DNA from: Armatimonadia bacterium
GTDB taxonomy: Bacteria > Armatimonadota > Zipacnadia > Zipacnadales > UBA11051
Length of the DNA: 64,000 bases
NCBI GenBank assembly: GCA_039683575.1
Contig: JBDKRC010000137.1
Span: 1-64,000, forward strand
Direction of reading: 5' to 3'
Part shown: positions 8,256 to 64,000 of the stretch, in pieces
How positions within the stretch are numbered: position 1 is the stretch's first letter
Layout of the letters: the number at the start of each line of letters is the position of its first letter
Translations under genes and position numbers: made by a program
Notes under the pieces: model-generated
What the model was told of the DNA's origin: nothing
The model's input: the letters and a program-made list of their open reading frames with translations, nothing else
The model's database searches: none

Positions 8256-11200
8256 TTAGTACCTGGCATAGCCCGAGGGGATGATTTCAATCTCGTCGCC
8301 AATTCCGACATCACACACGACGTATGCGCCTCCTGCAGGGAAGTCCTGCAGAGCCTTCGCGTCAAGCGGCGTGAAGGCCGCTTCCGTGGCAGACTTCAGA
8401 CGCCACTCTCTGCCCGACGGAGACTTGCGCACCGGCTTCCCATCGAAAAGACCCGCATTGACGCGCAGTTTCATTACCGGAGTCTGGCTGGCGAAACTCC
8501 CGGCCGTCCCGCTCTCAGCGACCACTCCGCGCGCAACGATCAGCGGCATGTTCAACACGAAGCGGCACGAACCTCCCGCAAGGCGTTCAGCTTTCTCGAT
8601 TGTGTACACCGATGTGTAGCCGTAAGCCTTGTTGCGCACGAGCAGCTTGTTGCCCACGAAACTGCTGGTCGGGTCGAGACTGCCCTCGGCGGTCTTGACC
8701 GCGACGGCGGACTTCTCTGCATTTGCCGCAGTCACCGTACCGTGATAGGTGCCCGGAAGCTCCAGCCGCCCAGCCTCCGACGCCAGCTCTCCCCCACCCA
8801 CCAGCATCGCCGCGATGGGCTTGCCTTGCTTCAGCGTCAAGAGCGCAAACCGCCCCTCAAAGTACACATCCCTATCCCCCACCTTCAGATGCCGTCCTCG
8901 CCAGTCTTCCTGGCTCGCGCTGCTGATCAGGATATCCTGCCGGACCGCCCCCGCGGCGTTCACGGTCTCAACCAGCACAGCCGTCAACTCGCCCGGCTTG
9001 ATCGGATCATCTTCCTCGGTGGTGACCGGCAGCGCCCGAACTGCCCGCACCCGCGACGGCTCCCGGTGTGCTTCGATGATGGACACAAACGCGCTCACCT
9101 GCCGCGAATCAGCGGGCCGGTCGCGCACGATCAGGTGCCCCTCCAGCGGCGCCTGCCCGCGCACCCCATAGCCTTCGCTGACCGCCCTGATGACCTCGCG
9201 GCCCGGCTGTCCGAGCATGTGGAGGGTGAGCATCACAGGCTCCGTATCACGAGCCTTCAAGACGCCATCCGCTACCGAGTACGTCCCATCGTTGCGCGCC
9301 CAGAACTTCTCGTCGAGAGGCTTCGTGAAGTCCGCCCTGATCGGCGCGCCGCCCTCGGGCGTGATCGTGAAGTCGCTGTAGTCGTACGCGTAGTTGTAGT
9401 AATGTAGCAATCCCACCGAGCCGCTCTTAGCGGGCGCGCCGGCCACGTCTACGCTGCCTGTCGCCTTGCCATCAACCGTCATCGTCGCCTGATCCTCGCG
9501 AACCTGCACTTTCACTGCCACGGGCTTGCCAATCGGCAAGCTGCCGGCAGGCATCATGATCACGCGGCGGTTGTTGACCTGCTGCGGATCAGTTGCGAAG
9601 ACAAATACACATCGTTCCTGTGGGCCGCCAGCCTGCCCGACGCGGGTGATATTGAACTCGACCGTGCAGTTGGTGAAGCTCTGCTTCGTGAGCAGGTAGC
9701 GGTCGCCCTGCGACCCACCGCTCTTCGGCGACCAGACAGCCTTCACGAGGCCCTCACCTGGCGCGCGTTGCACGTCCCACAGCCACCCATATCCCGCCTT
9801 GGTAGTCGGCTCCACGTCCTCCCCTGCCAGCGAACCGCGCGCTTGTTTCACCCACGGTGGCTGCTGGCCCTCGATTGTGACCGCCATGTCCTCTGGTTTA
9901 CCGAAGGAGTGGAAGAGATAGTCGCGCGTCTTGCCCCCCGCGACCCGGAACAGGTCGAACGTGTACAGCGGCTCCCCGGCATCATCGCGCACCAGCGCGA
10001 CTGTGCGGCGGTACAGGCTGCACTGCGGATACGCATCCTCTGCCGAGGCCTCAACGACATCGCACGAAGGGCTGGTGGCGTAATAATGCAGGTCGCCGAT
10101 GACGTTCCAGGCCTGTCCGGCTTCATCAACCATTACCGTGCAATGACTGGCAGTGTTCATCTCCCAGCCACCCGCCTTGCGGTCGGTCCACGTCGTCGGA
10201 TATCCCAGGTCGGCGCTGAAGTCCCAGCCGTAGCGGAAGATGTTGATCGCCAGCTTGTCCGGATGCCCATGCCCGTATTGGCCCTTGCTGAAGGTCATGG
10301 CGACATGTTGCCGGGTCGCGGCCTTGTCGCCGGCGCGCAAGATCGCGATGCCGCCGTCATCAAACATGTACGAGCGCGAGGGAGGGAGCTTGGCATCGGC
10401 AGGCTTGGCCGGAGGCGCGGGCTGAATATGGAAGACGCGCCAACAGTCGCCGGACTCGGCTCTTGCAGCTTCCATGTCACCGCCGCCTGCCGCCATGATC
10501 TTGCTTTGGTAGTAGCCGCGCTGCGCCGGCAGCCGCAGCAGCGCCCGCTCGTCGTTGAGGCCGTAGGCGACGCCCTCGCGCAGGTTTTGCGAACGTGACC
10601 CGCCGACGTCGCCGATCTGCGGCACGCGGCCATCGCAGTCTATGTAGCGAATGAAATCGAACAAGGCGCTCATGCGGTAATCGGGATCGTTGTACAGATC
10701 GAGAGGCTTGCCCTCGTAGGGGTAGCCATGAATCCACTCAGCAATCGCCAGTGGAGTCTGCGCATTGCCGAGGTTGTAGCCGGTGCTGTCGTAGATGAAC
10801 TTGCCATCGCGGAACCACGAATTCGTCAGCATCACCCGCAGCCCCACATCGCTCTCCAGCATCTCCCGCGCGATCTTGTCGTTGCCAAGGCACGAAGCCA
10901 GCCCGGAGAGCGCGGTCATCTCATACATGATGAAGTCGCCGTCAAAGTACGGCATGCAACGGTGGAGGTACTCGTAGATGTAGCCCAGGAGATTGCGCTG
11001 CAGGTTGTAAGTCAAGTCGTTGCCGTCGCACTTGCCGTCCGCGTTATAGTCAGCATCGCCCTTCGCCGCAAAGAAGTCTCGAAGCGCTGCGTCTTTGGGG
11101 ACCTCGTCCCAAATCAGGTCGCAGGCGAGGATTATGTTCTGGACGAGAAAGCGTTCGAAGGTGTTGCCGATGTAGCCGTCCTGGCGCTGCGAGGGACCTT

Positions 11201-12556: not shown

Positions 12557-15500
12557 ATGCGATTCACGCTCTTGCTCCTGCCCCTCGTCATCGCCATCTC
12601 AGCCTTTGCTGCCGAGGACATCCCGCTCAAGAACGCCTCGTTCGACGCCGGCGTCGACGCCAAAGGCACTCCCGAGGGCTGGAGTCGCTATGGCGGCACC
12701 CTCGCTGAGCAGAAACTCAGTCTGGTGCCCGCCCCGCAAGGCAAGGCACTGCTTATTGACGACGGCAGCCCCACCGAGGAGATCGGCGTCACCCAGGCCG
12801 TGCCCATCAAGGCCGGCGAGACCTACCGCGTCACTGTCATGGTCGCTGCGGTGCCCGGGGCCGAGGCTGCCGGAGCCTACCTGCAAATGCGCTTCCAGCC
12901 CACCGACAAGTTCACCCAGGTAGCACTGACCCCGAAGGCCGAGGATGGTTTCACCGAGATTGCTGCGACCATGACGGCCCCCGAGGGTTCCGAACGGCTG
13001 ACAATCTATCTCTACAGTCACAAGGAGACCACTCCGAAAGTCCTGGTGGATAACGTGAAAGTGCAAACCGCCGAACCCGTCGCCGCATCTGCCACGATTC
13101 CCGAACCGAAGGTCCCGCAGTACGCCAAGCTCAAGGACCTGCACCTCGCCACGCCGCTGGTCCAGGGCGGTAAGCCCATGGTCACGATTGTTGCGCCCCC
13201 TCCATATAAGCAGGTCGGCGAATCGCTAAAATCGGCCATAAAAGATTCCACCGGCGTCGAAGTTCCGGTGGTTAGCGACGACGCCCCCGCCGCTGCACTG
13301 CCCCTGCAGGGCCATCTGATCGTCCTGGGCAACCGCTCGACCAACAAGACAATCAGCGCCCTCTACGACCGCGCCTACACCTTCCTCGACCTCAAGTACC
13401 CCGGCCCCGGCGGCTATGTCCTGCGCAGCCTCCACAGCCCCTTCGGCGACGGGCGAAACGTGATCTTTGTCGGCGGCAGCGATGACGCCGGAGTAGCCAC
13501 CGCCGCGCGAGCGCTCGTAAAGAAGCTCTCTGGCAAGCCCGGGGAGTTGGCGGTCGGCTGGCTCAGCGACCTCAAGCTCAGCCCCGACTACGCCCTGCCC
13601 GCGGACCTCAAGCAGGCCGAAATCTGGGAAGCGTCCGAGATGTACGGCTCCTCTGGCTACTTCGGCTGGAACATGATCAGCAAGCTCATGGCGCTGTACT
13701 ACATGTCGGGTGATGAGAAGTACCTCAAGGAATTCATGCGTCTCTCCTTCCCCGATGCTGCGGCCATCAAGGAGATCGAGGACGGAGACGGCGAGCGCAT
13801 CGAAAACAAAACTGACCCGCTGGCCGGGCCCTACCACTACTCGGCGCACATGATGATCGTGCTCTGGGACCTGATCGAGGAGAGCCCCTTCTTCACCGAC
13901 GCGCAACGCCTGACCATCACGAATGCCTTTGCCCGGCAGTTGACCCACCGCGTTGTCGAGGGCGTGTATGGCCGCACGGAGCCGCAGGCAGGCATCGGCG
14001 ACCGCCATGGCGACTGGGCAGCCTTCTCGCTCTACGTGCTGGGGCGCTACTTCAACAAGGACTACCCTGAGCCGGTCTGGCAGCGCTCCCTGCAGGCTGC
14101 CGATCAGTACTTCAACGTCCTCAAGCGCACCTACTGGATGGCCGGCAATAACGACCATCTCTTCTGGTTCACCTCGTACTACGACCCGATGCTGAACTAC
14201 CTTCTCATGACCGGCCGGCGTGACCCCGACATGCTGGCCAACCTCCGCCGCGCCTTCGAGACCCAGGAGATACTCTTCACCGGCAGAGAGCGCGACACGG
14301 GCCTCAAGGCCTCGGCTCTGAGCATGCTCAACAAGGCGGCCTACATCCTGGGCGATGGGCGCTGGCTGTGGTACAGAGGCCGTATCGGCGTCAACCAGGA
14401 TTGCCTGCGTCTCGGGCAATCATTCTGGCCCGGTCCCGATCTCAAGCCTGTCGCCCCGACTGACCAGATCGGCAAGTGGAACCTCCACTGGATGTCCGAG
14501 GACATGTGGAAAAGCCGGGCCACAGGCTTCCCGATGGACCAGTCGTTCCGCTGGGGCGCCTACCGCAGCGAGCTTGGCCCCGGCGGCGACTACCTCATGA
14601 TCGACGGCTACAACGGCGCTGGCCGCAATCCCTACCACACCTTCGACATCCTCGAACTCCGTCTGAATGGCGCGACGCTGCTCAGCGGCTACAACAACCA
14701 GGTGCTCTCCAGCGCCGACGGCATGGTTGAGCCGCAAGTCGCGATGGATGGCCGGCTGCTGCACCACGACGTTCTGGGCCAGACCGCCAGCTTCGTCGGC
14801 GAGGTGCCGAAGCTGGCCTTCGCCAACTGGCAGCGCTCGTTAGCCCAGCGCGTAGGCCGCTACGCCGTGGTCGTGGACGATCTGGCCTTCCGCACCGATA
14901 GCGAGAACATCAAGGCGCAGACCACATGGCAGATGCCCTCGGCGACGTGGCTGCCGGCCCTGAACCTGGCGCGGGTGAAGGCCTATGGCGCCATCTCCAT
15001 GCCTGAGGGCTGGCTCAACTTCCCTGCCATTGATGCCACCTGCGCCTGTGGCCCCGGCACTCCCGCCGATCTGCTGTCGCGGCTCGCCTCGATAGACATC
15101 ATGCTCCTCAAAGCGCAGGGGCCGGGAACCTGGATCGAGATGCCCTTTGAGCTCAAGCAGAAGTTGACCGGCGAGGTCTTCGCGGACTTGCTCAACTACG
15201 AGGACCGTGGCATCGTGCGCCTCTACCTCGATGGCAAGCAAGTGGGGGACGATGTGAATCACTACGCGGGCGCGGTGGCCACTACCCGCGTTTCTCTCGG
15301 TATCCATGACCTCGCCGCGGGCACGCACCGCCTGAAGGTCGAGGTCGTCGGCAAGCGCCCCGAGGCGAAGAAGTACTTCGTGGGGCTGACCGGCGTGAAG
15401 ATCCGCCCCGAGGGAGCGGCGACCGCTGCCCCGCAGGTGACTTACGAGTTGCATAGTTCGGAGCTGATGGACGTCTCGGGCGGCGGCATCATCACGATGG

Positions 15501-42065: not shown

Positions 42066-45065
42066 CTAGCGCGGAGCGGCTTCAAGCAGACTCTCGGCTT
42101 GCGTGATGATACGCTCAAGTTCCTCTGCATTGGTGTTGAATTCGCTATAGCTTGTCACGACCGCGTCGGCGGCGGTGAGCACGGCCTGCGCTTGACGCCG
42201 CCACTCGCCCCCTTGTTGGTTGCCCTGTGAGGCGGCGAGTTCCTCAGTTAGGAGGGCCAAGGTATCGTAGTCGTTGAGCCCCTCACGGAATAGCTCCCAG
42301 CGGATCGAGTTCAGGATGCCATCCCTGTTCGGAGTGGGATACAGCATCCAGCCATCCCCGTGGCGGCGAGGCTTGCCGTCAAGGCCCTCGGTCCAGGGGT
42401 CGAGTTCGTTGACTCCCCCGGTGCCGCCCCAGTAATTGATAGACCACCAGATCAGACCGTCGAGACCGACTTTGCGCGCCACCCATGGAAGGATGCGAGC
42501 ATTGATAGCCGGGAGGTCTATGAGAGCGAGCTCATTGTGGTAGGCCCAGAGCTTGCCGCCTGCGGCGTGTATGGCCTGCACCGCACCGGGGCTGAGGTCG
42601 GGGGCACCGAAGTACAGGGCGGGACACCAGAGGTCCACGAGGCCCTGAAGCTCCGGCAGGGGGGAGTTGGAGATGAAGATGGGCAGGTCGGGGGCGGCCT
42701 GCCGGACTAGGCGCGCGAGTTTGGGGAGTTTGTCGCGCAGGACGGCGTCTTTGGCCCAGAACGGCTCGTCCCACAGCCAGAGGGCCGTGCGGTCCATCCA
42801 GCCCTCGCGGCGGAAGACCTCGGCTATCTCCCGGATCCTCGCCTGGAAGCTGGCGGCAAAGGCGGGGTCGTCGGGGTCAAGGTCGAGGTCGCCCCACTTG
42901 CGACGGCCGTCCCAGCCGCCCGCGCCGAGGAACTGCACGGGAAACCACGCGAAGCGCAGGCCGGTGGCGAAGTAGCGCTTACCGGCGGCGGCGATGTCGC
43001 CATCTTCGCCGATCCGGAAGCGCCCGGTGCTGGCGCAGCGGTGGGCGGCAGCGTTTTGGGCGAACTGCTCCCAGGGAATGTTGCCGTACTTGGTCTGATA
43101 TATGCCCCAGCCGTACCAGACATCGGCGGCGACGCGGAGGCGGCTAAGGTCAGGAAGCTCGTACTTGAGCACCCGCAGGCGCAAATCGAAGTCTTCACTG
43201 ACGCCCTCGCCGAGAAGATGGGCTTTGCTCTGATAGACGCCGGGCTTTGCATCGCGTGGGACTGCGACCGTCAGCCAGAAGACAACGTGCGCGGGGCCTG
43301 TGGCGTCCACGGGCGTCGGGGGCAGCAGCGGGTCGGGCCAGTCCCCCGCAAAGGTGGTCTGGTCGGAAGGGGTCTTGATGGTGACGTAGCCGACGTTATT
43401 GAGGCGCAGGCACTGGGCGGACAGCTTGCCCTGTGCCGAGGTGAGCTCGTCGAATTGCAGCCGCAGGCCGCGCAGGGGCATCTGGCGGGGCGTCAGGCCG
43501 ATCTGCAAGGCGCGGGTCTGGTTGCGAGCGGCCTGCAGCTCAAGGACAGGGCGCGGCGCGGTGGGCTCGATGCGATCCGAGGGCAGGACCTTGTAGGTGG
43601 GGCTGAGCGACCAGAGCAGGAAGCGGGGCGTGGCGGCGAGGACCTGGGGGCGCAGCACCTGCACGTCGGCAGTCTGCGGGAGGGCGTAACGGCACTGTGA
43701 GACGGGGCTGCCGGCGGCGAGCAGCTTGACGTAGAGGTCCTGCTTGCCGGTTTCGGCCAGCTTGAGGGGCATCACGAAGGGGGCAGTGCTGACGGACTGT
43801 TCGGTGGTAGTTGTCTCGCCGCTACGCTTGACGGCGCTGCAACGGAGAGTCGTCTGGGCAGCGCCGGTGACGGTACCGCGAAGCTCCTGGCCTTGCAGAG
43901 AGGCGATGGTTAGGCCCGGCGGCTGCTCGCCGAAGATCAGCAGGCCCCATTCGGCGGGATTGCACCAGTCCTTCTGGCGCGCGAAGAGCGAGCAACTGGT
44001 CCCGTGCGGTCGATTCCGACCGACTTGCAGGGCCCATGCGCCGCTCGGGCCGCGGCCGAGGTCGGCGAAGGGAACGGCCATCTCGGCGCTCCAGCCGGTG
44101 GACGTGCGCACGGCGCGCACCTGCCACTTGGGCTCCCACGACAGGTCGAGCTTAGCGGTCCCGTTCTTGTCCCGCGTACCGCGCTGGCTGTACGGCGTCC
44201 CGAGGGGATTGGCGGCGAGTTGGAGGTAGCCGGTCCCGGAACGGTCGGGGTCGAGGAAGACTTCGAAGGAATCGTCGCCCCATACCGGGCCGTCGGGCTG
44301 GGTCTCGCGGGCGATGAGCTTGGCGGGATCGTCGGTGCTCTGCATGGCGAGGTAGAGGCGGGTTGCATCATAGCCTACGCGGAGGGCCACGGGCTGGGCG
44401 CATGGCCGGGCGTCGAAGTCGGCGAAACTGCCGAGGGGCGCAACGGATTTCCAGGCGGGGTCATCGAGTTGGCCGTCAATCGTGGGCGCGGCGGGGAGGC
44501 GGCTGGCGGTGATGAACAGGTCGCGTTCCTGGACCTGTGGCACGTTGTCGGTGAGGGTCACGTTGTCGAGCAGTAGTGCGTGGGCGCGCCCTTCGGAACC
44601 CTCGGCGCGCTTCTGGCCGATCCACAGTCGCGTGATCTGGGCACCGCTGACGGCCTGGCGGAAGCTGCGGGCCAACGGGAGGTCCACGTGGACCCACTGG
44701 TTGAGCTTGGGGCGCAGGGAGGGCATCGCGCCATACTCTTTGCCGTCGGCGGTCGTGACGAGTACCTGGATATAGTACGGCTCGGCGGGGCCGAGGGAGC
44801 AGAAGTCGAAGCTGAGGCAGGAGTCGCGGTCAGTGAACTGCCAGCCTGGGCTGACATAGAGGACGCCTGAGGTGGACTCTGCCTGAAGAGCGGCGCCGGT
44901 CGGACCTGCGGCGAGGCGGTGGGTGAGTTTGACGGCGGCGGGCGAGGAGGTGACCCAACCATCGAGGCCAGTCTCGAAGTCGCAGGTTTTTGCAGGGGCT
45001 GCAAGGGCCGCCACACACGGCAAGATTGCGAGCAGGCTGAACCAGTAGCGGAAGGCTGAGGGCAT
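42066..45065 (-). CDS. DUF4091/GH123-like glycoside hydrolase with CBM9-like domain
   Basis: PTIDGQLDDPAW, DDSFEVFLDP, WSAEMAVPFADL; AARNQ, WPDPL, WDEP, GDGWMLYP, SIRWELFREGLNDY. Confidence 0.8.
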   Translation of the reverse strand: MPSAFRYWFSLLAILPCVAALAAPAKTCDFETGLDGWVTSSPAAVKLTHRLAAGPTGAALQAESTSGVLYVSPGWQFTDRDSCLSFDFCSLGPAEPYYIQVLVTTADGKEYGAMPSLRPKLNQWVHVDLPLARSFRQAVSGAQITRLWIGQKRAEGSEGRAHALLLDNVTLTDNVPQVQERDLFITASRLPAAPTIDGQLDDPAWKSVAPLGSFADFDARPCAQPVALRVGYDATRLYLAMQSTDDPAKLIARETQPDGPVWGDDSFEVFLDPDRSGTGYLQLAANPLGTPYSQRGTRDKNGTAKLDLSWEPKWQVRAVRTSTGWSAEMAVPFADLGRGPSGAWALQVGRNRPHGTSCSLFARQKDWCNPAEWGLLIFGEQPPGLTIASLQGQELRGTVTGAAQTTLRCSAVKRSGETTTTEQSVSTAPFVMPLKLAETGKQDLYVKLLAAGSPVSQCRYALPQTADVQVLRPQVLAATPRFLLWSLSPTYKVLPSDRIEPTAPRPVLELQAARNQTRALQIGLTPRQMPLRGLRLQFDELTSAQGKLSAQCLRLNNVGYVTIKTPSDQTTFAGDWPDPLLPPTPVDATGPAHVVFWLTVAVPRDAKPGVYQSKAHLLGEGVSEDFDLRLRVLKYELPDLSRLRVAADVWYGWGIYQTKYGNIPWEQFAQNAAAHRCASTGRFRIGEDGDIAAAGKRYFATGLRFAWFPVQFLGAGGWDGRRKWGDLDLDPDDPAFAASFQARIREIAEVFRREGWMDRTALWLWDEPFWAKDAVLRDKLPKLARLVRQAAPDLPIFISNSPLPELQGLVDLWCPALYFGAPDLSPGAVQAIHAAGGKLWAYHNELALIDLPAINARILPWVARKVGLDGLIWWSINYWGGTGGVNELDPWTEGLDGKPRRHGDGWMLYPTPNRDGILNSIRWELFREGLNDYDTLALLTEELAASQGNQQGGEWRRQAQAVLTAADAVVTSYSEFNTNAEELERIITQAESLLEAAPR

Positions 45066-54356: not shown

Positions 54357-55430
54357 TTAGCGCCTGCACTCGCTGATGGCGTCGGTAAAGACCATTACCA
54401 GGTCCTCCGCGGCGCCCTGCGGGCTGAAATCTCTCTCAATCAGCGGCGGGGCCCACTGGCACGTTGGCTCCTGCTTCCAGGCGTCATAGGCTTCGAGCAG
54501 ATTGCCCGTGTAGTCTTCCGCCGTTCCCTGGCCCGGCGCCGCATGGTCGCCGAAGTTGGCGTCACGGGCTGCGATGAAGTTGCTCTCGCGCAGATAGCCG
54601 ATCAGACCCATGCTACCCGCGGCGATCACGTGCCGCCCGCAGGCCAGTGCCTCCAGGGCCACGTAGCCTGTTCCGACCACGACCGCCGCATTGTGGTAGA
54701 CGTCCTCGACATCGAAGCGCGGCCCAGTGACCTCGACGGCCTGCCGACCCAGCATTGAGTTGATCTCAGCCGCTCTCTGCCGGACTTTGCCAACCTGTGA
54801 ACGTCCCCCGACAATCTGAAGCTTCAGACCCGGGATCTGCTCATTCAGCGCCAACACCGCTTCCATGAGCGCGTAGGCGGGGCGGGACTTCACTTTCGAG
54901 AGCCGCGCCACGTAGGCCACCGTGAAGCCTTCACCCGGTGCCGCGTCGCGCTGCTGAAAGCGCGTGACATCGACGGGCAGGTACGATACTACAGTCTTCT
55001 CGGCCACACCGGGGACCTGTGACACCCAGCGGCCGGTCGTGACATTGAGCGCCACCACGCGCGTAGCCGCCTCCAGGCCCGGCGTCGCCTCCTGCAGGTT
55101 TATGAGGCCATGGACGTGTGACACCAGAGGTATGCCAAGGCGCTGGCACACTGTCGCCGCCGCGTTTGTGGCGCTGATCCCGTGGGCATTGACTACATCG
55201 ATACCAAGCGCGCGCACCAGACCCGGCAACTGGCTGCGCACGAGTACCGAACCTGGGAGGTTGAGGAACACTTTTCCCGCGCAGGCTTGCCTCATGGCCT
55301 TGCGATATGGCCCCAGGCCTACCATCAGATGCACGCGGTGCCCGAGTGCTTCCAGGGCAGGCATCACGGTGCACTTGTAGGTGTTGCCGCCGCCAATCTG
55401 GGCGTTGCGGCCAAGCATGAGGACATTCAT
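54357..55430 (-). CDS. Glycosyltransferase family 4 (GT-B)
   Basis: GG N-terminal motif, DVVNAH, SHVHG, VDVTRF, YVARL, VALEALACGR. Confidence 0.85.
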   Translation of the reverse strand: MNVLMLGRNAQIGGGNTYKCTVMPALEALGHRVHLMVGLGPYRKAMRQACAGKVFLNLPGSVLVRSQLPGLVRALGIDVVNAHGISATNAAATVCQRLGIPLVSHVHGLINLQEATPGLEAATRVVALNVTTGRWVSQVPGVAEKTVVSYLPVDVTRFQQRDAAPGEGFTVAYVARLSKVKSRPAYALMEAVLALNEQIPGLKLQIVGGRSQVGKVRQRAAEINSMLGRQAVEVTGPRFDVEDVYHNAAVVVGTGYVALEALACGRHVIAAGSMGLIGYLRESNFIAARDANFGDHAAPGQGTAEDYTGNLLEAYDAWKQEPTCQWAPPLIERDFSPQGAAEDLVMVFTDAISECRR

Positions 55431-60833: not shown

Positions 60834-61595
60834 CTAATCAAGCCGCAATTCCCGCTGCACCGAGGCTCGCAGCCGGGCCGTGGCCTGAGTGTGGATCTGG
60901 CAGATCCGGGACTCGGTGACGCCCATGATCTCGCCAATCTCCTTGAGGGTCAGTTCCTGCTCATAGTAGAGGCTTATTACCGTCCGTTCACGGTCTGGCA
61001 GAGCCAGGACCGCCGCTGCCACGAGCCGCCGCAACTCCACCTTCTCCATCACCGCCAGTGGGTCTGCGAACTCTTCGGAGACCTCGATACCGGCATAGTC
61101 AGCGATCTCATGCGGCTCATCCCCCAGCAGCAACTCCTCGATCGAGCCGATGGTAGCGATGCTTGCCGCGGACAGGAAACGATGATACTCCGGCAATTCC
61201 ATCCCCATTGCCTCGGCGACTTCCTCCTCCTCCGGAGCACGCAGTAGCCGCCCTTCCAACTCGTTGATGACTTCCGCCAGTTGCCGCAGCTTGCGGCGCA
61301 TGCTCCGCGGGGCCCAATCCTTGGCTCTCAGCGACTCCATGACCTCGCCCCGCACTACCGTGGTGGCATAGGTCTCAAACTTCACTCCGCGGTCCGGGTC
61401 GAAGCGATCCACGGCCTTGATCAGGCCGAGAATGCCCGCTGACACCAGGTCCTCGCGGTCCACGTTGTTCGGCAGATGGGTGGTGATGCGGCCGACAACA
61501 TACTTCACAATCCTGACGTGGTCACGGATCACCTGCTCGCGCTCTGCAGGCGTCTGGCACCACTCAGCAACTATCTGCCGAACCGTAGCGCTCAG
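60834..61595 (-). CDS. fliA: FliA/WhiG-family sigma factor (sigma-28), probable CTG start
   Basis: EDLVSAGILGLIKAVDRFDPDRGVKFETYA, DWAPRS, LYYEQELTLKEIGEIMGVTESRICQIH; AAAGGAGG 7 nt before the CTG at 61595. Confidence 0.88.
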   Translation of the reverse strand: MSATVRQIVAEWCQTPAEREQVIRDHVRIVKYVVGRITTHLPNNVDREDLVSAGILGLIKAVDRFDPDRGVKFETYATTVVRGEVMESLRAKDWAPRSMRRKLRQLAEVINELEGRLLRAPEEEEVAEAMGMELPEYHRFLSAASIATIGSIEELLLGDEPHEIADYAGIEVSEEFADPLAVMEKVELRRLVAAAVLALPDRERTVISLYYEQELTLKEIGEIMGVTESRICQIHTQATARLRASVQRELRLD

Positions 61596-63595
61596 ATTGC
61601 TCCCTCCTTTATCACGGTCGCGACCGGGTCGGCCATGGGCACCTGGGCGGTGTGGATCGTGTGAACTTCAGTCAGCGGCAGCAGTTCCGCGGCCTGCACG
61701 GCGCGAAGGGCCGCGCCTGACTCTGCGATGAGTTGTGCCACCGCTCCGCGAGTCCGGGCGGTGCATAGTACGGTCGCCGGGTGCCCCGGGGCGCCGAGAC
61801 GCTCTGCCAACTGCCTCAACATCGCGAACCATAGCGCTGCACGCTGAGGAGCCAAGGCCAGCGGCAGCCCCGAACGGTCCACGGCCGTTGCCAGTTCCTG
61901 CTCCAGTTCGCGCGCGAGTTCAACCACTTCGACGAAGCCACCGGGCGCCACCAGCCGCGTAATCGTCTGCGCCAGCGCGGGTCGCGCTGCCTCTGCCAGG
62001 TCGGCCGCTGTTCGGCCCTGCGCGGTTGCCAGCGCCTCCAGGAGCGATATCCGTTCAGTCAGGGGCACGCCCTCCGCCAACAGGCATCTGCCCACCTCAC
62101 GCACGTCGCTCAGCGTTACCCCTGCCTGCCTGACCGCCGCCACTGTCGCCGGATGCGTTACCTCCGCCATCTGCAGCAGTTCGGTCGCCCGCTGCAGGTC
62201 AAACAGCTCGGCGGCATGGCTGGTCACTGACGCCCGCACGTGCAACACCAACACCGCCAGCGGGTCCAGGACATGGTAGCTCGCTGCGTCCAAAGGCTGG
62301 GCATCGGTGTCTCGCAGCCAAGTCGCCTGCGCCCCATCCGGAAGGGCGGTTTCCAGCCCACCGCCCGGTAGCACCGCCTCCGCTACCGGAGCCACGAGCA
62401 AGCGCCCCGGGCGCAGTGTCGCCTCGGTGACCGTGCTGCCGCCCAACACGATGCGAAAACTGTTGCCCTGCAGGCCCTGCTCATCAGTCACGGCAAAAGG
62501 TGGCACCGCGAAGCCCAATTCGTCCGATAGCGCCCCGCGTGTCTTCGCCAGCAGCCCTGGCAAGTCGTGTCCGGCCACCAGGCCGATCAAGCCGAGGCCC
62601 AGCCGCAGTTCCAGTTGTCCTGCAGGCTGCTCCTCAGGCGGAGGGGGTTGCGACCACTGTGCACGGTGCAAGTACAAGCCGCAGGCGCCCACAAGCGCCG
62701 CCGACAGCAGCAGTGGAGCCTTCGCTATCCCCGGAGCCAGTCCCACCAACAACAGGGCCATCGCCACTGCCCCGATCAGCGCGGGACGCGCCACCAGTTC
62801 GCGCAGGAACGGTCCGCCTTCCGGCTGCTCCGCTGTCCGCGCCAGCAGCAGCGCCGCCGCGGCCCCCATCAGGATCGCCGAGATCATCAGGATCGTCGCC
62901 TGTCCCAGGGCGGGAATGGCCTGATCGGCCACCGGCATCCCGTTTGCCATGCCGGCCAGCGGAATGGCAACGGTGATCACCACTATGGCGATGGCGTCCC
63001 CCTTAAGAAACCGGGCCACCCCATCCATCGCGCCAAAGAAGCTCTGCTGGGCCTCCATCCGCCGCGCCTCGGCCGCTCCGGCTTCAGGAGTGAGACGTCC
63101 CGCCGAGAGCGCCGCCTCAAGTGCCATCTGCTTGCCTGGCATGGCGTCGAGCGCAAAGCGCGCAGCAACTTCGGCAAGGCGCATGACACCGAGGTTGATC
63201 ACTATGAAGGTGACAATTACCAGCAAGGCCAGCAGCACCACGGCGCTGAGAATCTGGCTCCCGCCGCCGGTCATCTGCATCCCGAGACTCTGTGCCAGCG
63301 AGCCCGCAGCGCCTCCGGTCGTGACTGCCCGCAGCGCCCCGAGGCACAGCCCCACCCGGAGCAGGCTCGCCGTCACCATCACCACGGGCAGCGAAGCAAA
63401 CCGCTCGACGCTTGCGGCCGAGGCCGCCAGAATCAGTACGGCCACCGCCAGCGCCAGATTAGCCGCGAATAGCGCGTCGAGCACCACGCCCGGCAGCGGC
63501 ATCACCAGCAACGCGAGCGCGACCAGCACGGCCAGCATTACCACGTGTTCACGTGTCAGCTTGAGCCTGGTTATTGGGCCGAGCAACTCAGCCAC
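61592..63595 (-). CDS. flhA: Divergent FlhA/SctV (FHIPEP) export-gate protein
   Basis: RLAEVAARFALDAMPGKQM, FFGAMDG.ARFLKGDAIA, ELGF..P; GTG 63595 after GGAGG. Confidence 0.85.
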   Translation of the reverse strand: MAELLGPITRLKLTREHVVMLAVLVALALLVMPLPGVVLDALFAANLALAVAVLILAASAASVERFASLPVVMVTASLLRVGLCLGALRAVTTGGAAGSLAQSLGMQMTGGGSQILSAVVLLALLVIVTFIVINLGVMRLAEVAARFALDAMPGKQMALEAALSAGRLTPEAGAAEARRMEAQQSFFGAMDGVARFLKGDAIAIVVITVAIPLAGMANGMPVADQAIPALGQATILMISAILMGAAAALLLARTAEQPEGGPFLRELVARPALIGAVAMALLLVGLAPGIAKAPLLLSAALVGACGLYLHRAQWSQPPPPEEQPAGQLELRLGLGLIGLVAGHDLPGLLAKTRGALSDELGFAVPPFAVTDEQGLQGNSFRIVLGGSTVTEATLRPGRLLVAPVAEAVLPGGGLETALPDGAQATWLRDTDAQPLDAASYHVLDPLAVLVLHVRASVTSHAAELFDLQRATELLQMAEVTHPATVAAVRQAGVTLSDVREVGRCLLAEGVPLTERISLLEALATAQGRTAADLAEAARPALAQTITRLVAPGGFVEVVELARELEQELATAVDRSGLPLALAPQRAALWFAMLRQLAERLGAPGHPATVLCTARTRGAVAQLIAESGAALRAVQAAELLPLTEVHTIHTAQVPMADPVATVIKEGAI

Positions 63596-63614
63596 GTAGC
63601 CCCTCCGTAATCGA

Positions 63615-64000
63615 TCATGAGCTTCTGCCCTTCCTTGCCCGCCGCTTCGCGAGCCCCGGCCCCTCCGTCTCCTTCTGCTCATCAAGAAGCTCCCGGTGTG
63701 ACAGACGCGCCTGTTGCATGTATGCCGCCCGCGTCCACAGCAGGTGTAGCAGCGCCATGCCAACGAGCACCGCGAGCCATCTCCCCCACGCCTGCGCCAG
63801 CGCCGGCCGCGCCCAGAGTTCCTGCCAACTCTCCGCCCGGCCCCACGCTCCCAACAGCCCCGCCAGCACTACTCCTCCACCAGCAAGTGCCACCGTCCCC
63901 AGCATCAGCCCCGGCCACTGCACTCCTCCACGCTTGGCCCGCCGCAAGCTTTTTCGCATCAGCCCCACGCTCTCTCCACTCCCTGCCTCACCCGTCTGCA
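63615..64000 (-). CDS. flhB: FlhB/SctU-like protein, 3' part, ending before the NPTH cytoplasmic domain (5' truncated by window)
   Basis: Two TM segments then Y....RLS.REL.DEQKETEG.....RR, the FlhB linker motif, followed by a stop. Confidence 0.72.
   Translation of the reverse strand, partial: QTGEAGSGESVGLMRKSLRRAKRGGVQWPGLMLGTVALAGGGVVLAGLLGAWGRAESWQELWARPALAQAWGRWLAVLVGMALLHLLWTRAAYMQQARLSHRELLDEQKETEGPGLAKRRARKGRSS

Follow-up and report, generated by a model that had tools for sequence, protein, structure and literature searches.

A probable second, flagellum-derived export gene cluster with a shortened FlhB in an Armatimonadia bacterium

The cluster at the end of the window

The sequence analysed here, referred to as the window, is a 64,000-base stretch of DNA from an Armatimonadia bacterium, and forms the start of contig C137 (JBDKRC010000137.1; 87,703 bases) of a 6.2-Mb genome (G000, 352 contigs). 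Its end carries a short flhB, a divergent flhA (flhA2) and a sigma-28 gene, all on the minus strand, which are related to the export apparatus of flagella, a secretion system of type III (T3SS). They form the 3' end of an operon of about 14 kb that extends beyond the window (nucleotide numbers on C137 continue those of the window), and that probably specifies a second, paralogous exporter in this organism.

The short flhB (nt 63615–64316, minus strand; the 3' part, 63615–64000, lies in the window and the frame continues past its end) encodes a protein of 233 amino acids (aa), consisting of a transmembrane N-domain and a linker stub. It terminates with ...DEQKETEGPGLAKRRARKGRSS, and the TGA stop (nt 63615–63617) falls in the linker, 14 residues past KETEG. 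As the GTG start of flhA2 (nt 63595) lies 19 nt downstream of this stop, there is no room for a domain carrying the NPTH site. The match to PF01312 covers profile positions 3–108 and 179–235 of a profile length of 335 and so indicates that the whole cytoplasmic C-domain, with NPTH, is missing. The FlhB C-domain and NPTH cleavage drive the substrate-specificity switch in flagella and injectisomes, and the full-length, autocleaving form is not what the short flhB specifies. The original prediction, made from the window, had given just these distances, had seen no space for the NPTH domain and had discounted a frameshift; the coordinates bear this out, and the end point recurs in 11 aligned relatives (see below). 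With flhA2 only 19 nt away and a conserved end point, a frameshift can be ruled out as the cause of the shortening. It had also been pointed out that a complete flagellar gene set together with a separate FlhB C-domain would indicate an ordinary split flhB. The flagellar set is present elsewhere in the genome, but a stand-alone C-domain of the FlhX/YlqH kind was found neither in G000, where the sole C-domain is that of the canonical FlhB, nor in five flagellum-less relatives (PF01312, E ≤ 1), and a split gene is likewise ruled out.

The product of flhA2 (nt 61592–63595, minus strand; 667 aa) matches the FHIPEP family (PF00771) with an E-value of 1.8e-104 and about 350–351 bits, compared to 838 bits for the canonical FlhA encoded on contig C44 of the same genome. 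It retains RLAEVAARFALDAMPGKQM and GAMDGVARFLKGD, with LEAAL in place of the canonical IDADL, and both the preserved core and the altered motif noted at the outset were confirmed. The acidic residue of QMA-x-D is kept (D in most FlhA2 members, E in the window and in genus g12), and no member retains TVGD or the second Asp of IDADL. The solved structures nearest to FlhA2 in sequence are FlhAs.

The sigma-28 gene (nt 60834–61595, minus strand, from the probable CTG start) follows flhA2, and inspection of the open reading frames (ORFs) and Pfam matches confirmed that neither flhF nor flhG lies between them. It belongs to the FliA/WhiG class (TIGR02479; Pfam sigma-70 r2, r3 and r4), scoring 249.7 bits against a TIGR02479 cut-off of 189.6; the next best protein in the genome scores 127.8, leaving the window gene as the only one above the cut-off. 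The first canonical start codon is GTG (nt 61532), and the frame is open upstream of it. A start at CTG (nt 61595) would overlap the flhA2 stop (ATCTGA), and the N-termini of sigma-28 proteins of relatives (e.g. MNAAARSQATNWCLTPAMREQ in G001) align residue-for-residue with LSATVRQIVAEWCQTPAEREQ, read from this codon, which is probably the true start. The direct overlap of fliA with the flhA stop, as originally described, holds for the CTG start, with which the relatives agree, and is lost if translation begins at the GTG. The predicted ribosome binding sites are in place: GGAGGGG precedes the GTG of flhA2, and AAGGAGG lies 7 nt upstream of the CTG.

Inspection of the upstream contig, which had been suggested as a check, revealed fliP, fliQ, fliR, fliO, fliI and a short fliF. 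On the minus strand, the short flhB is preceded by fliR2 (nt 64309–65040; Pfam FliR, 2.3e-26), fliQ2 (65049–65321; Pfam FliQ, 24.2 bits, just below the cut-off of 25), fliP2 (66339–67055; Pfam FliP, 9e-61), fliO2 (67070–67429; Pfam FliO, 1.3e-8), fliN2 (67426–67698; FliMN_C), a fliM-like gene (67692–68507; 271 aa, with a C-terminal SpoA domain only), a fliJ-like gene that is FliJ-sized and has no Pfam match (68507–68938), fliI2 (68942 to about 70312; ATPase, 3e-82), fliH2 (70306–70863; Pfam FliH, 1.3e-23) and the short fliF (70885–71700; 271 aa, YscJ_FliF profile positions 92–178). The two SpoA-type proteins, FliN2 and the FliM-like protein, have FliMN_C E-values of 8e-21 and 1.4e-14. Apart from the marginal FliQ score, therefore, the FliP/Q/R/O/H/I set of flagellar export and a FliN/SpoA platform are all represented. 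Further upstream, also on the minus strand and assigned by Pfam, are genes for a GAF + HD-GYP protein (71856–73322), a response regulator (73350–73742) and a HisKA-only, kinase-like protein (73739–74482) that leads the operon. Among the 15 cluster ORFs, Pfam detected no rod, hook, filament, FliE, FliG, Mot, ring or secretin families, nor SctD or SctF; for SctD, SctF and secretin this holds for the cluster, no genome-wide search having been made.

Other contigs of G000 carry a canonical flagellar set. It comprises a full-length FlhB of 357 aa with NPTH (C239), the canonical FlhA on C44, a FliF with both Pfam domains, FliG, FliE, FliK, FliL, FliN, FliP, FliQ, FliR, FlgA, FlgB, FlgC, FlgD, FlgE, FlgF, FlgG, FlgH and FlgI (which include the rod, hook and L and P ring proteins), FlgK, FlgL, FliD, FliS, flagellin, MotA, MotB and sigma-54. 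Given this complete set, the window cluster represents a second, paralogous system rather than a split or decayed flhB. The search for flagellin, hook, rod and mot genes that the original prediction had called for thus returned all of them, and the cluster is not the only export apparatus of the organism. The canonical flhA on C44 is not followed by flhF, flhG or fliA (region C44:42300–44630); the next ORF is one of 70 aa, and in the roughly 2 kb between it and flgF a GC3-based ORF picker kept only a 60-aa ORF on the minus strand.

Conservation and descent

The cluster was compared among 41 genomes (G000 and 40 relatives), many of which are incomplete bins. A short FlhB in an open frame of 229–308 aa occurs in 22 of them, G000 included and G022 left out, in which a partial match lies in a 602-aa frame; adding FlhA2-class and profile matches raises the carriers of the system to 26. 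All 11 short FlhBs that were aligned stop 14–20 residues past RETEG, while the canonical FlhB of G000 extends about 110 residues further. Gene order is preserved in six of six whole loci (G001, G002, G006, G012, G020, G035), and wherever the cluster is full the sigma-28 gene keeps its place in it. Within the genus the leader genes for the kinase-like protein, response regulator and HD-GYP protein co-occur, and the HisKA-only gene also heads the locus in genus g12, where the cluster is split across three loci. Closer relatives are 98% and 84% identical in FlhA. The sigma-28 is the best-conserved cluster gene (50–79% identity in relatives), and the short FlhB is only 39% identical within a genus.

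A profile built from the short FlhBs was run against 1.84 billion representatives (clusters at 50% identity), and recovered 44 proteins at E ≤ 1e-30. The 45 best matches (121–252 bits) are all 208–252 aa in length, and full-length FlhBs begin at match 46, with 107 bits. In 301 genomes of the phylum, strong short matches (at least 157 bits) were present in 18 and partial ones in three. All 21 of these genomes fall among 28 of the same order; the other 273 genomes have none, giving matches of at most 90 bits in frames of at least 345 aa. By these searches the short FlhB and its gene order are conserved over an order-level clade, which supports the view, suggested from the start by the intact frames, that the cluster is not a product of random decay; conservation of the truncated protein across relatives had been proposed as a check, and the same end point recurs.

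If the cluster were the decaying remains of a second flagellar system, duplicated or acquired, that resembles a Flag-2-type remnant and has no present function, this would account for the loss of the FlhB C-domain, FliG, most of FliF, the rods, hook and Mot, for the fast evolution evident in the FlhA2 stem (1.98 changes per site, see below) and in the low identity of FlhB within the genus, and for the division of the g12 cluster into three loci. It would not account for intact frames with the same end, seen in 22 genomes as well as in 45 clusters formed at 50% identity, the preserved gene order, the retention of key FlhA residues and motifs, a conserved promoter motif, and a cluster that persists where flagellar genes were not found. 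A relic is very improbable on these grounds, and the cluster is most likely functional.

The scores of PF00771 matches are bimodal (canonical FlhA, 694–873 bits; FlhA2, 271–418 bits) and allow the two gates to be told apart. Seven relatives have the canonical set only. In another seven, which carry FlhA2 and are 87–96% complete, canonical FlhA, flagellin and a rod/hook C-domain were not found: G002 (same genus, 96%), G005 (87%), G006 (96%), G013 (89%), G023 (93%), G033 (92%) and G037 (93%). This pattern spans four genera in two families. A further genome, G016, looks the same but is fragmentary. With respect to rotor and filament, the seven were searched for flagellin and rod/hook proteins; FliG_C and Mot were not searched in relatives. 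Five of the flagellum-less genomes were also searched for an FlhB C-domain, and none has one at E ≤ 1, the only PF01312 match covering profile positions 3 to about 240; each of the five has exactly one T3SS ATPase. The gene content of these relatives suggests that the system is probably kept independently of the flagellum.

The descent of FlhA2 was examined in a tree of 56 FlhA/SctV sequences, picked for taxon spread from about 111 FlhA/SctV ORFs (IQ-TREE, LG+C20 PMSF, quick search, SH-aLRT). A scan of a wider collection of genome contigs with FlhA2 had given no close relatives but only canonical FlhAs, at 25–33% identity, and these served as references. FlhA2 forms one group (support 100, starred) on a stem of 1.98 changes per site, and lies inside the flagellar clade (100, starred), with five SctVs and two Archangium sequences outside and set apart by a starred branch, which is not the position of an SctV-type gate. 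Attraction to the outgroup does not appear to be at work, since long-branch attraction would draw FlhA2 towards the outgroup, contrary to the tree. Within the flagellar clade, FlhA2 is sister to the canonical FlhAs of the order (82, not starred). A tblastn search against plasmids matched FlhAs at E ≤ 1e-10 and no SctV, and the presence of FliO in the cluster is a flagellar trait. The phylogeny that had been proposed as a check therefore places FlhA2, as far as the tree can tell, in flagellar rather than SctV descent.

In five genomes of family f6, each of the two FlhA genes has a FliA gene at its side, and members of family f1, to which G000 belongs, have only one, beside FlhA2. This fits a duplication of the fliF ... 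flhA-fliA block followed by loss of a sigma gene in f1. Such a duplication, in an order-level clade of Armatimonadota and with subsequent stripping of the second copy down to what lies in and beneath the inner membrane, is the probable origin of the cluster, and one sigma gene would later have been lost in family f1.

Regulation and predicted structure

A sigma-28-type promoter (nt 74479–74505, minus strand), identified by motif search, precedes the kinase-like leader gene. The cluster loci of 10 genomes, 171 kb in total, contain the tight form of the motif, T[CT]AAGT-N12-14-[GC]CCGAT, seven times; 200 triplet-block shuffles gave 0.07 on average and never more than 2. The whole 6.2-Mb genome contains it only three times. 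It lies ahead of the leader gene in G000, G002 and G033, the latter two of which are without detected flagellar genes, ahead of the sigma-28 gene in G020, and ahead of fliR in G035. In five flagellum-less genomes the sigma-28 pattern gave 14 matches versus four in the reversed control, and only the one before the G002 cluster can be interpreted. The position of these sites suggests that the cluster is activated by its own sigma-28. The motif T[CT]AAGTAA...TGCCGATGA is also seen inside the short flhB of G002 (L112:5650–5677, minus strand) and G001 (L114:13472–13499, plus strand), at a distance of about 300 nt from the flhA that follows; this could reflect either a promoter within the gene or conserved coding sequence, and the motif is absent at this position in the window.

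Comparable sites are found at flagellar genes of G000. On C44, sigma-28-type sites (TCAAG-N14-GCCGATAA or GCCAATAA) occur on the plus strand at nt 8638–8664, 44654–44680 and 55023–55049, before the likely true start of rpoN, and before flgF and fliC, respectively. The rpoN gene (sigma-54) on C44 is followed by flgB-flgC-fliE-fliF. A strict E. coli-type sigma-28 consensus has three matches in the genome, none of them at flagellar genes, and a looser pattern was used afterwards. As the sole FliA of G000, the cluster sigma-28 probably serves the flagellar genes as well. The original prediction of a switch-less, repurposed export gate with its own sigma factor finds comparative support in each of its parts (non-decay, carriers in which flagellar genes were not found, the lack of an FlhB C-domain, and a syntenic sigma-28 with sigma-28-type promoters ahead of the cluster), with the amendments that the cluster is a second system and that its sigma-28 probably has flagellar targets too.

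The shared sigma factor and the sites before flgF, fliC and the rpoN-flgB operon could be taken to mean that the cluster is an alternative gate for the axial parts of the ordinary flagellum, relying on the canonical FlhB for the switch, and 18 of the 26 carriers do have canonical FlhA or flagellin in addition. This is unlikely in view of the seven carriers (87–96% complete) in which no canonical FlhA, flagellin or rod/hook match was found, five of which were searched and are without an FlhB C-domain. An accessory gate of this kind is also hard to reconcile with the short FliF, in which no sign was seen of the RBM3 and collar on which a rod-bearing MS ring rests, and with the lack of a FliG C-domain for stators.

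Regulatory genes are prominent enough at the locus to raise another alternative, that of an inner-membrane scaffold (similar to the nanotube 'CORE' or to a hat-like structure) or of a signalling device whose cargo is a regulator, e.g. an anti-sigma-28 factor, linking c-di-GMP or two-component input to sigma-28. The sigma-28 is the best-conserved gene of the cluster and appears to regulate itself, in two families the cluster begins with a HisKA-only protein, and a response regulator and a GAF-HD-GYP protein have been added in the genus. A candidate for a FlgM-like protein with a sigma-28-type promoter is present on C162, and a hat-shaped inner-membrane structure related to the flagellar T3SS, and of uncertain role, is described by Kaplan 2022 (PMC9380563). 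Active export is favoured instead by the conserved gate, the sorting platform and the complete ATPase complex, and a scaffold or signalling role of this type is rather improbable.

Two observations concern the sigma-28 pathway more generally. The FlgM-like candidate is a 108-aa ORF (MSDWLYQERRRMHIDPVRLQKL...) beginning at about nt 31080 of C162 (plus strand), after the sigma-28-type site, and could encode an anti-sigma factor. Two relatives, G028 and G040, have no FlhA of either kind and no flagellin, yet each encodes a sigma factor of the FliA/WhiG class that exceeds the cut-off (230 and 209 bits, respectively).

FliF consists of RBM1–3 and a collar, and SctJ of RBM1–2. In the 271-aa short FliF only one RBM was seen (PF01514 positions 92–178), with no sign of RBM1, RBM3 or the collar. 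A structural model computed from 11 sequences (mean predicted local distance difference test score, pLDDT, 75) has one alpha-beta-beta-alpha-beta-beta domain, a single membrane helix and a tail of five helices. The domain is nearest to FliF RBM2 (E 2e-7, TMt 0.82), compared to about 4e-4 for EscJ/PrgK. The tail has a conserved GP-x-x-FL ... L-x-x-ERPE motif, which we take to resemble the stretch around EHPQR in the middle domain of FliG; the corresponding stretch of the canonical FliG of G000 is LREERLQTVAAVL. In an all-against-all structural search of 48,161 chains, six FliG chains came out on top (Z 7.5–5.9), four of them as middle-domain matches, one as a C-domain match and one as a match in a chain of middle plus C-domain, and the next, unrelated chain scored 4.5. 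The models thus suggest that the short FliF is an RBM2 domain joined by a membrane helix to a FliG-middle-like tail.

Folding of the tail (alignment of 6 rows) together with the FliM-like protein (7 rows) gave a predicted complex with a score of 0.80, compared to 0.00 for the best of three controls; this mark is reached by 116 of 157 solved complexes and by 2 of 215 mismatched pairs, a calibration that applies only roughly, own alignments having been used. At least 98% of contacts are common to the runs, the partner has a pLDDT of at least 82, and the interface is formed by the ERPE stretch and residues 94–117 of the FliM-like protein. If the predicted complex is correct, the FliM-like protein docks on the short FliF tail through ERPE.

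These features also bear on a contact-dependent, non-flagellar T3SS (NF-T3SS), whether an injectisome or the needle-less type of Myxococcus, with outer parts encoded elsewhere or unrecognised. The short FliF is of SctJ-like size, and the parts list is like that of the 'Myxo' loci of Myxococcales, with gate, ATPase and small ring, as given by Abby & Rocha 2012 (PMC3459982). The RBM, however, is nearer to FliF RBM2 than to EscJ/PrgK, FlhA2 falls within the flagellar FlhAs while the Archangium sequences lie outside with SctV, and FliO and sigma-28 are flagellar traits. Moreover, the SctU of Archangium keeps a C-domain with NPDH, and the cluster ORFs are without SctD, SctF or secretin by Pfam. An explanation of this kind is very improbable.

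Interpretation and relation to known systems

The combined evidence favours, with a probability of roughly 0.6, a second, paralogous, flagellum-derived T3SS-type exporter that is switch-less, confined to the inner membrane and self-regulated. In such an exporter, a ring of RBM2 domains would hold the FliPQR-FlhB(N) gate, encircled by FlhA2, and the FliG(M)-like tails would carry a platform of FliM-like and FliN subunits that recruits FliH, FliI, FliJ and cargo. Because the FlhB C-domain is missing, there would be neither NPTH autocleavage nor a switch of substrate class, and a single class of cargo would be exported. Without rod, hook, ring, secretin or stator, cargo would be delivered to the periplasm or inner membrane, and no rotation would be expected. 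Sigma-28 would transcribe the cluster from the promoter ahead of the kinase-like leader gene, giving a positive loop, and in G000 would serve flagellar genes also. One candidate for the cargo is an anti-sigma-28 factor, in which case the machine would be a signalling device. A bolder form of this interpretation, which is possible but doubtful, is that of a third working T3SS lineage, neither flagellum nor injectisome: a switch-less inner-membrane exporter with a FliF(RBM2)-FliG(M) fusion ring and its own sigma-28 loop, exporting to the periplasm a single cargo class, which might be a regulator, for instance an anti-sigma factor.

Several points weigh against a self-regulated second exporter. 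Its function is deduced from parts lists alone, and because the sigma factor is shared with flagellar promoters in G000, the system is not regulated apart from the flagellum. The carriers are incomplete bins, so that 'not found' does not equal 'absent', and G012 has FlhA2 only and no flagellin, yet gives four rod-type matches. The sister relation to the FlhA of the phylum is weakly supported (82, quick search), and FlhA2 has a long stem (1.98) and skewed composition. The tail of the short FliF is not recognisable as FliG in sequence (BLASTP E of at least 1.9, hhalign probability 1.9%, no Pfam FliG at E ≤ 10); in Foldseek its top three matches are FliG, but at E > 1, and VIA Z values below 8 are middling for helical domains. 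The score of the predicted complex may reflect the model's memory of solved FliG-FliM complexes.

Compared to the canonical flagellar export apparatus, the cluster has the same gate, ATPase and platform families, the same flhB-flhA-fliA order, a FliA/WhiG sigma-28, and an FlhA2 that nests among flagellar FlhAs. It departs from a flagellum in having no FlhB C-domain or NPTH, in a FliF apparently cut down to RBM2, in a FliG that the models would reduce to one fused ARM-like domain, and in the absence from the cluster of FliE, rod, hook, filament, rings, MotAB, FlhF and FlhG. No FlhA2 member keeps the second Asp of IDADL, and the cluster is kept where flagellar genes were not found.

The closest parallel in composition is the 'Myxo' T3SS of Myxococcales, which Abby & Rocha (2012, PMC3459982) describe as a conserved system made up of gate, ATPase and small ring, in which genes for secretin, needle, Flg and Mot are missing. 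This NF-T3SS, also called the needle-less T3SS* (see also PMC12075869), was initially taken for a relic. Both are reduced, conserved systems with a gate, an ATPase and a small inner ring, and without outer parts. They differ in that the SctV of Archangium lies outside the flagellar clade, whereas flagellar descent, FliO and sigma-28 characterise the present system, and in that the Archangium SctU (about 343 aa, NPDH) has kept the C-domain that the short FlhB lacks.

Remnants of the flagellar T3SS are another point of comparison. In Lysobacter enzymogenes, a non-flagellated host, a remnant of this type is reported to work without a flagellum (PMC7688988), and so are the flagellar export genes retained as the nanotube CORE (PMC6456723). 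Such remnants are the sole left-over export genes of their hosts, while here a diverged paralogue stands beside a full flagellum in many genomes, and has its own predicted ring fusion and truncated FlhB. The stand-alone FlhB-C paralogues FlhX/YlqH and FliR-FlhB fusions are natural rearrangements of FlhB domains. They keep the C-domain in trans or in fused form, unlike the present system, in which no C-domain was found at E ≤ 1 in five of five flagellum-less carriers. No description of a T3SS family without the FlhB C-domain, or of a second T3SS in Armatimonadota, was found in open-access papers or bioRxiv.

The C-domain of FlhB/SctU and its NPTH cleavage are treated as an essential core of every T3SS. 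If the interpretation is correct, a conserved natural family without them would show that the gate can work, or do another job, in the absence of a substrate switch, and the cluster would offer a naturally minimal setting in which to ask what export requires of FlhB-N, FlhA and the ATPase. The FliF(RBM2)-FliG(M) fusion would suggest that a sorting platform can dock without a rotor. There is also a parallel to the proposed first step towards the injectisome, in which the loss of motility parts came ahead of the gain of new outer ones; here the step appears in a separate lineage, within a phylum that has been little studied. Retention of the system in genomes where flagellum genes were not found makes its function accessible to genetics.

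Shortened FlhBs are not confined to the family in Armatimonadota. Among the 150 best representatives, 82 are below 300 aa and none of these 82 has an NPxH site. Outside this family there are 32 complete short FlhBs of 225–283 aa (among P0049–P0148), without NPxH, 22 of which are linked at identities of at least 35%; a separate search with P0051 found two relatives that carry the name of Phycisphaerae bins in their source. Metagenome contig L172 encodes a 265-aa FlhB in the order fliN-P-Q-R-flhB-flhA ... sigma-28, and L205 a fusion of FliR with a short FlhB. On L171, a 361-aa FlhB without NPxH lies in fliF-G-H-I-N-P-Q-R-flhB-flhA-sigma-28, with no rod or hook genes nearby. Locus L168 belongs to the same set of loci. 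In a sample of 201 Planctomycetota genomes, almost only full-length FlhBs were found. The matches suggest that loss of the FlhB C-domain may be recurrent, and may have occurred in at least one other phylum.

The remaining observations concern minor features of the operon. Most of the cluster is without cover in the contig sets of three RNA libraries. Contigs of these libraries join L001:13301–13329 to 14536–14607 (C137:73301–73329 and 74536–74607), skipping about 1.2 kb that corresponds to the response-regulator and kinase-like genes; the sides of the join are only 24–28 letters long, and it may represent a short repeat or sequence of another organism. A lipoprotein gene without Pfam match (nt 65428–66273, plus strand) lies between fliQ2 and fliP2. 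It is covered by contigs of the three RNA libraries that are at least 95% alike (L001:5324–6293), where carry-over of DNA is possible, and an Atlas lead to a DUF3108-like protein is weak. The gene is kept between fliP and fliQ in G002, G006 and G012 (L112:7189–8004, L117:10680–11366 and L118:7615–8367, respectively).

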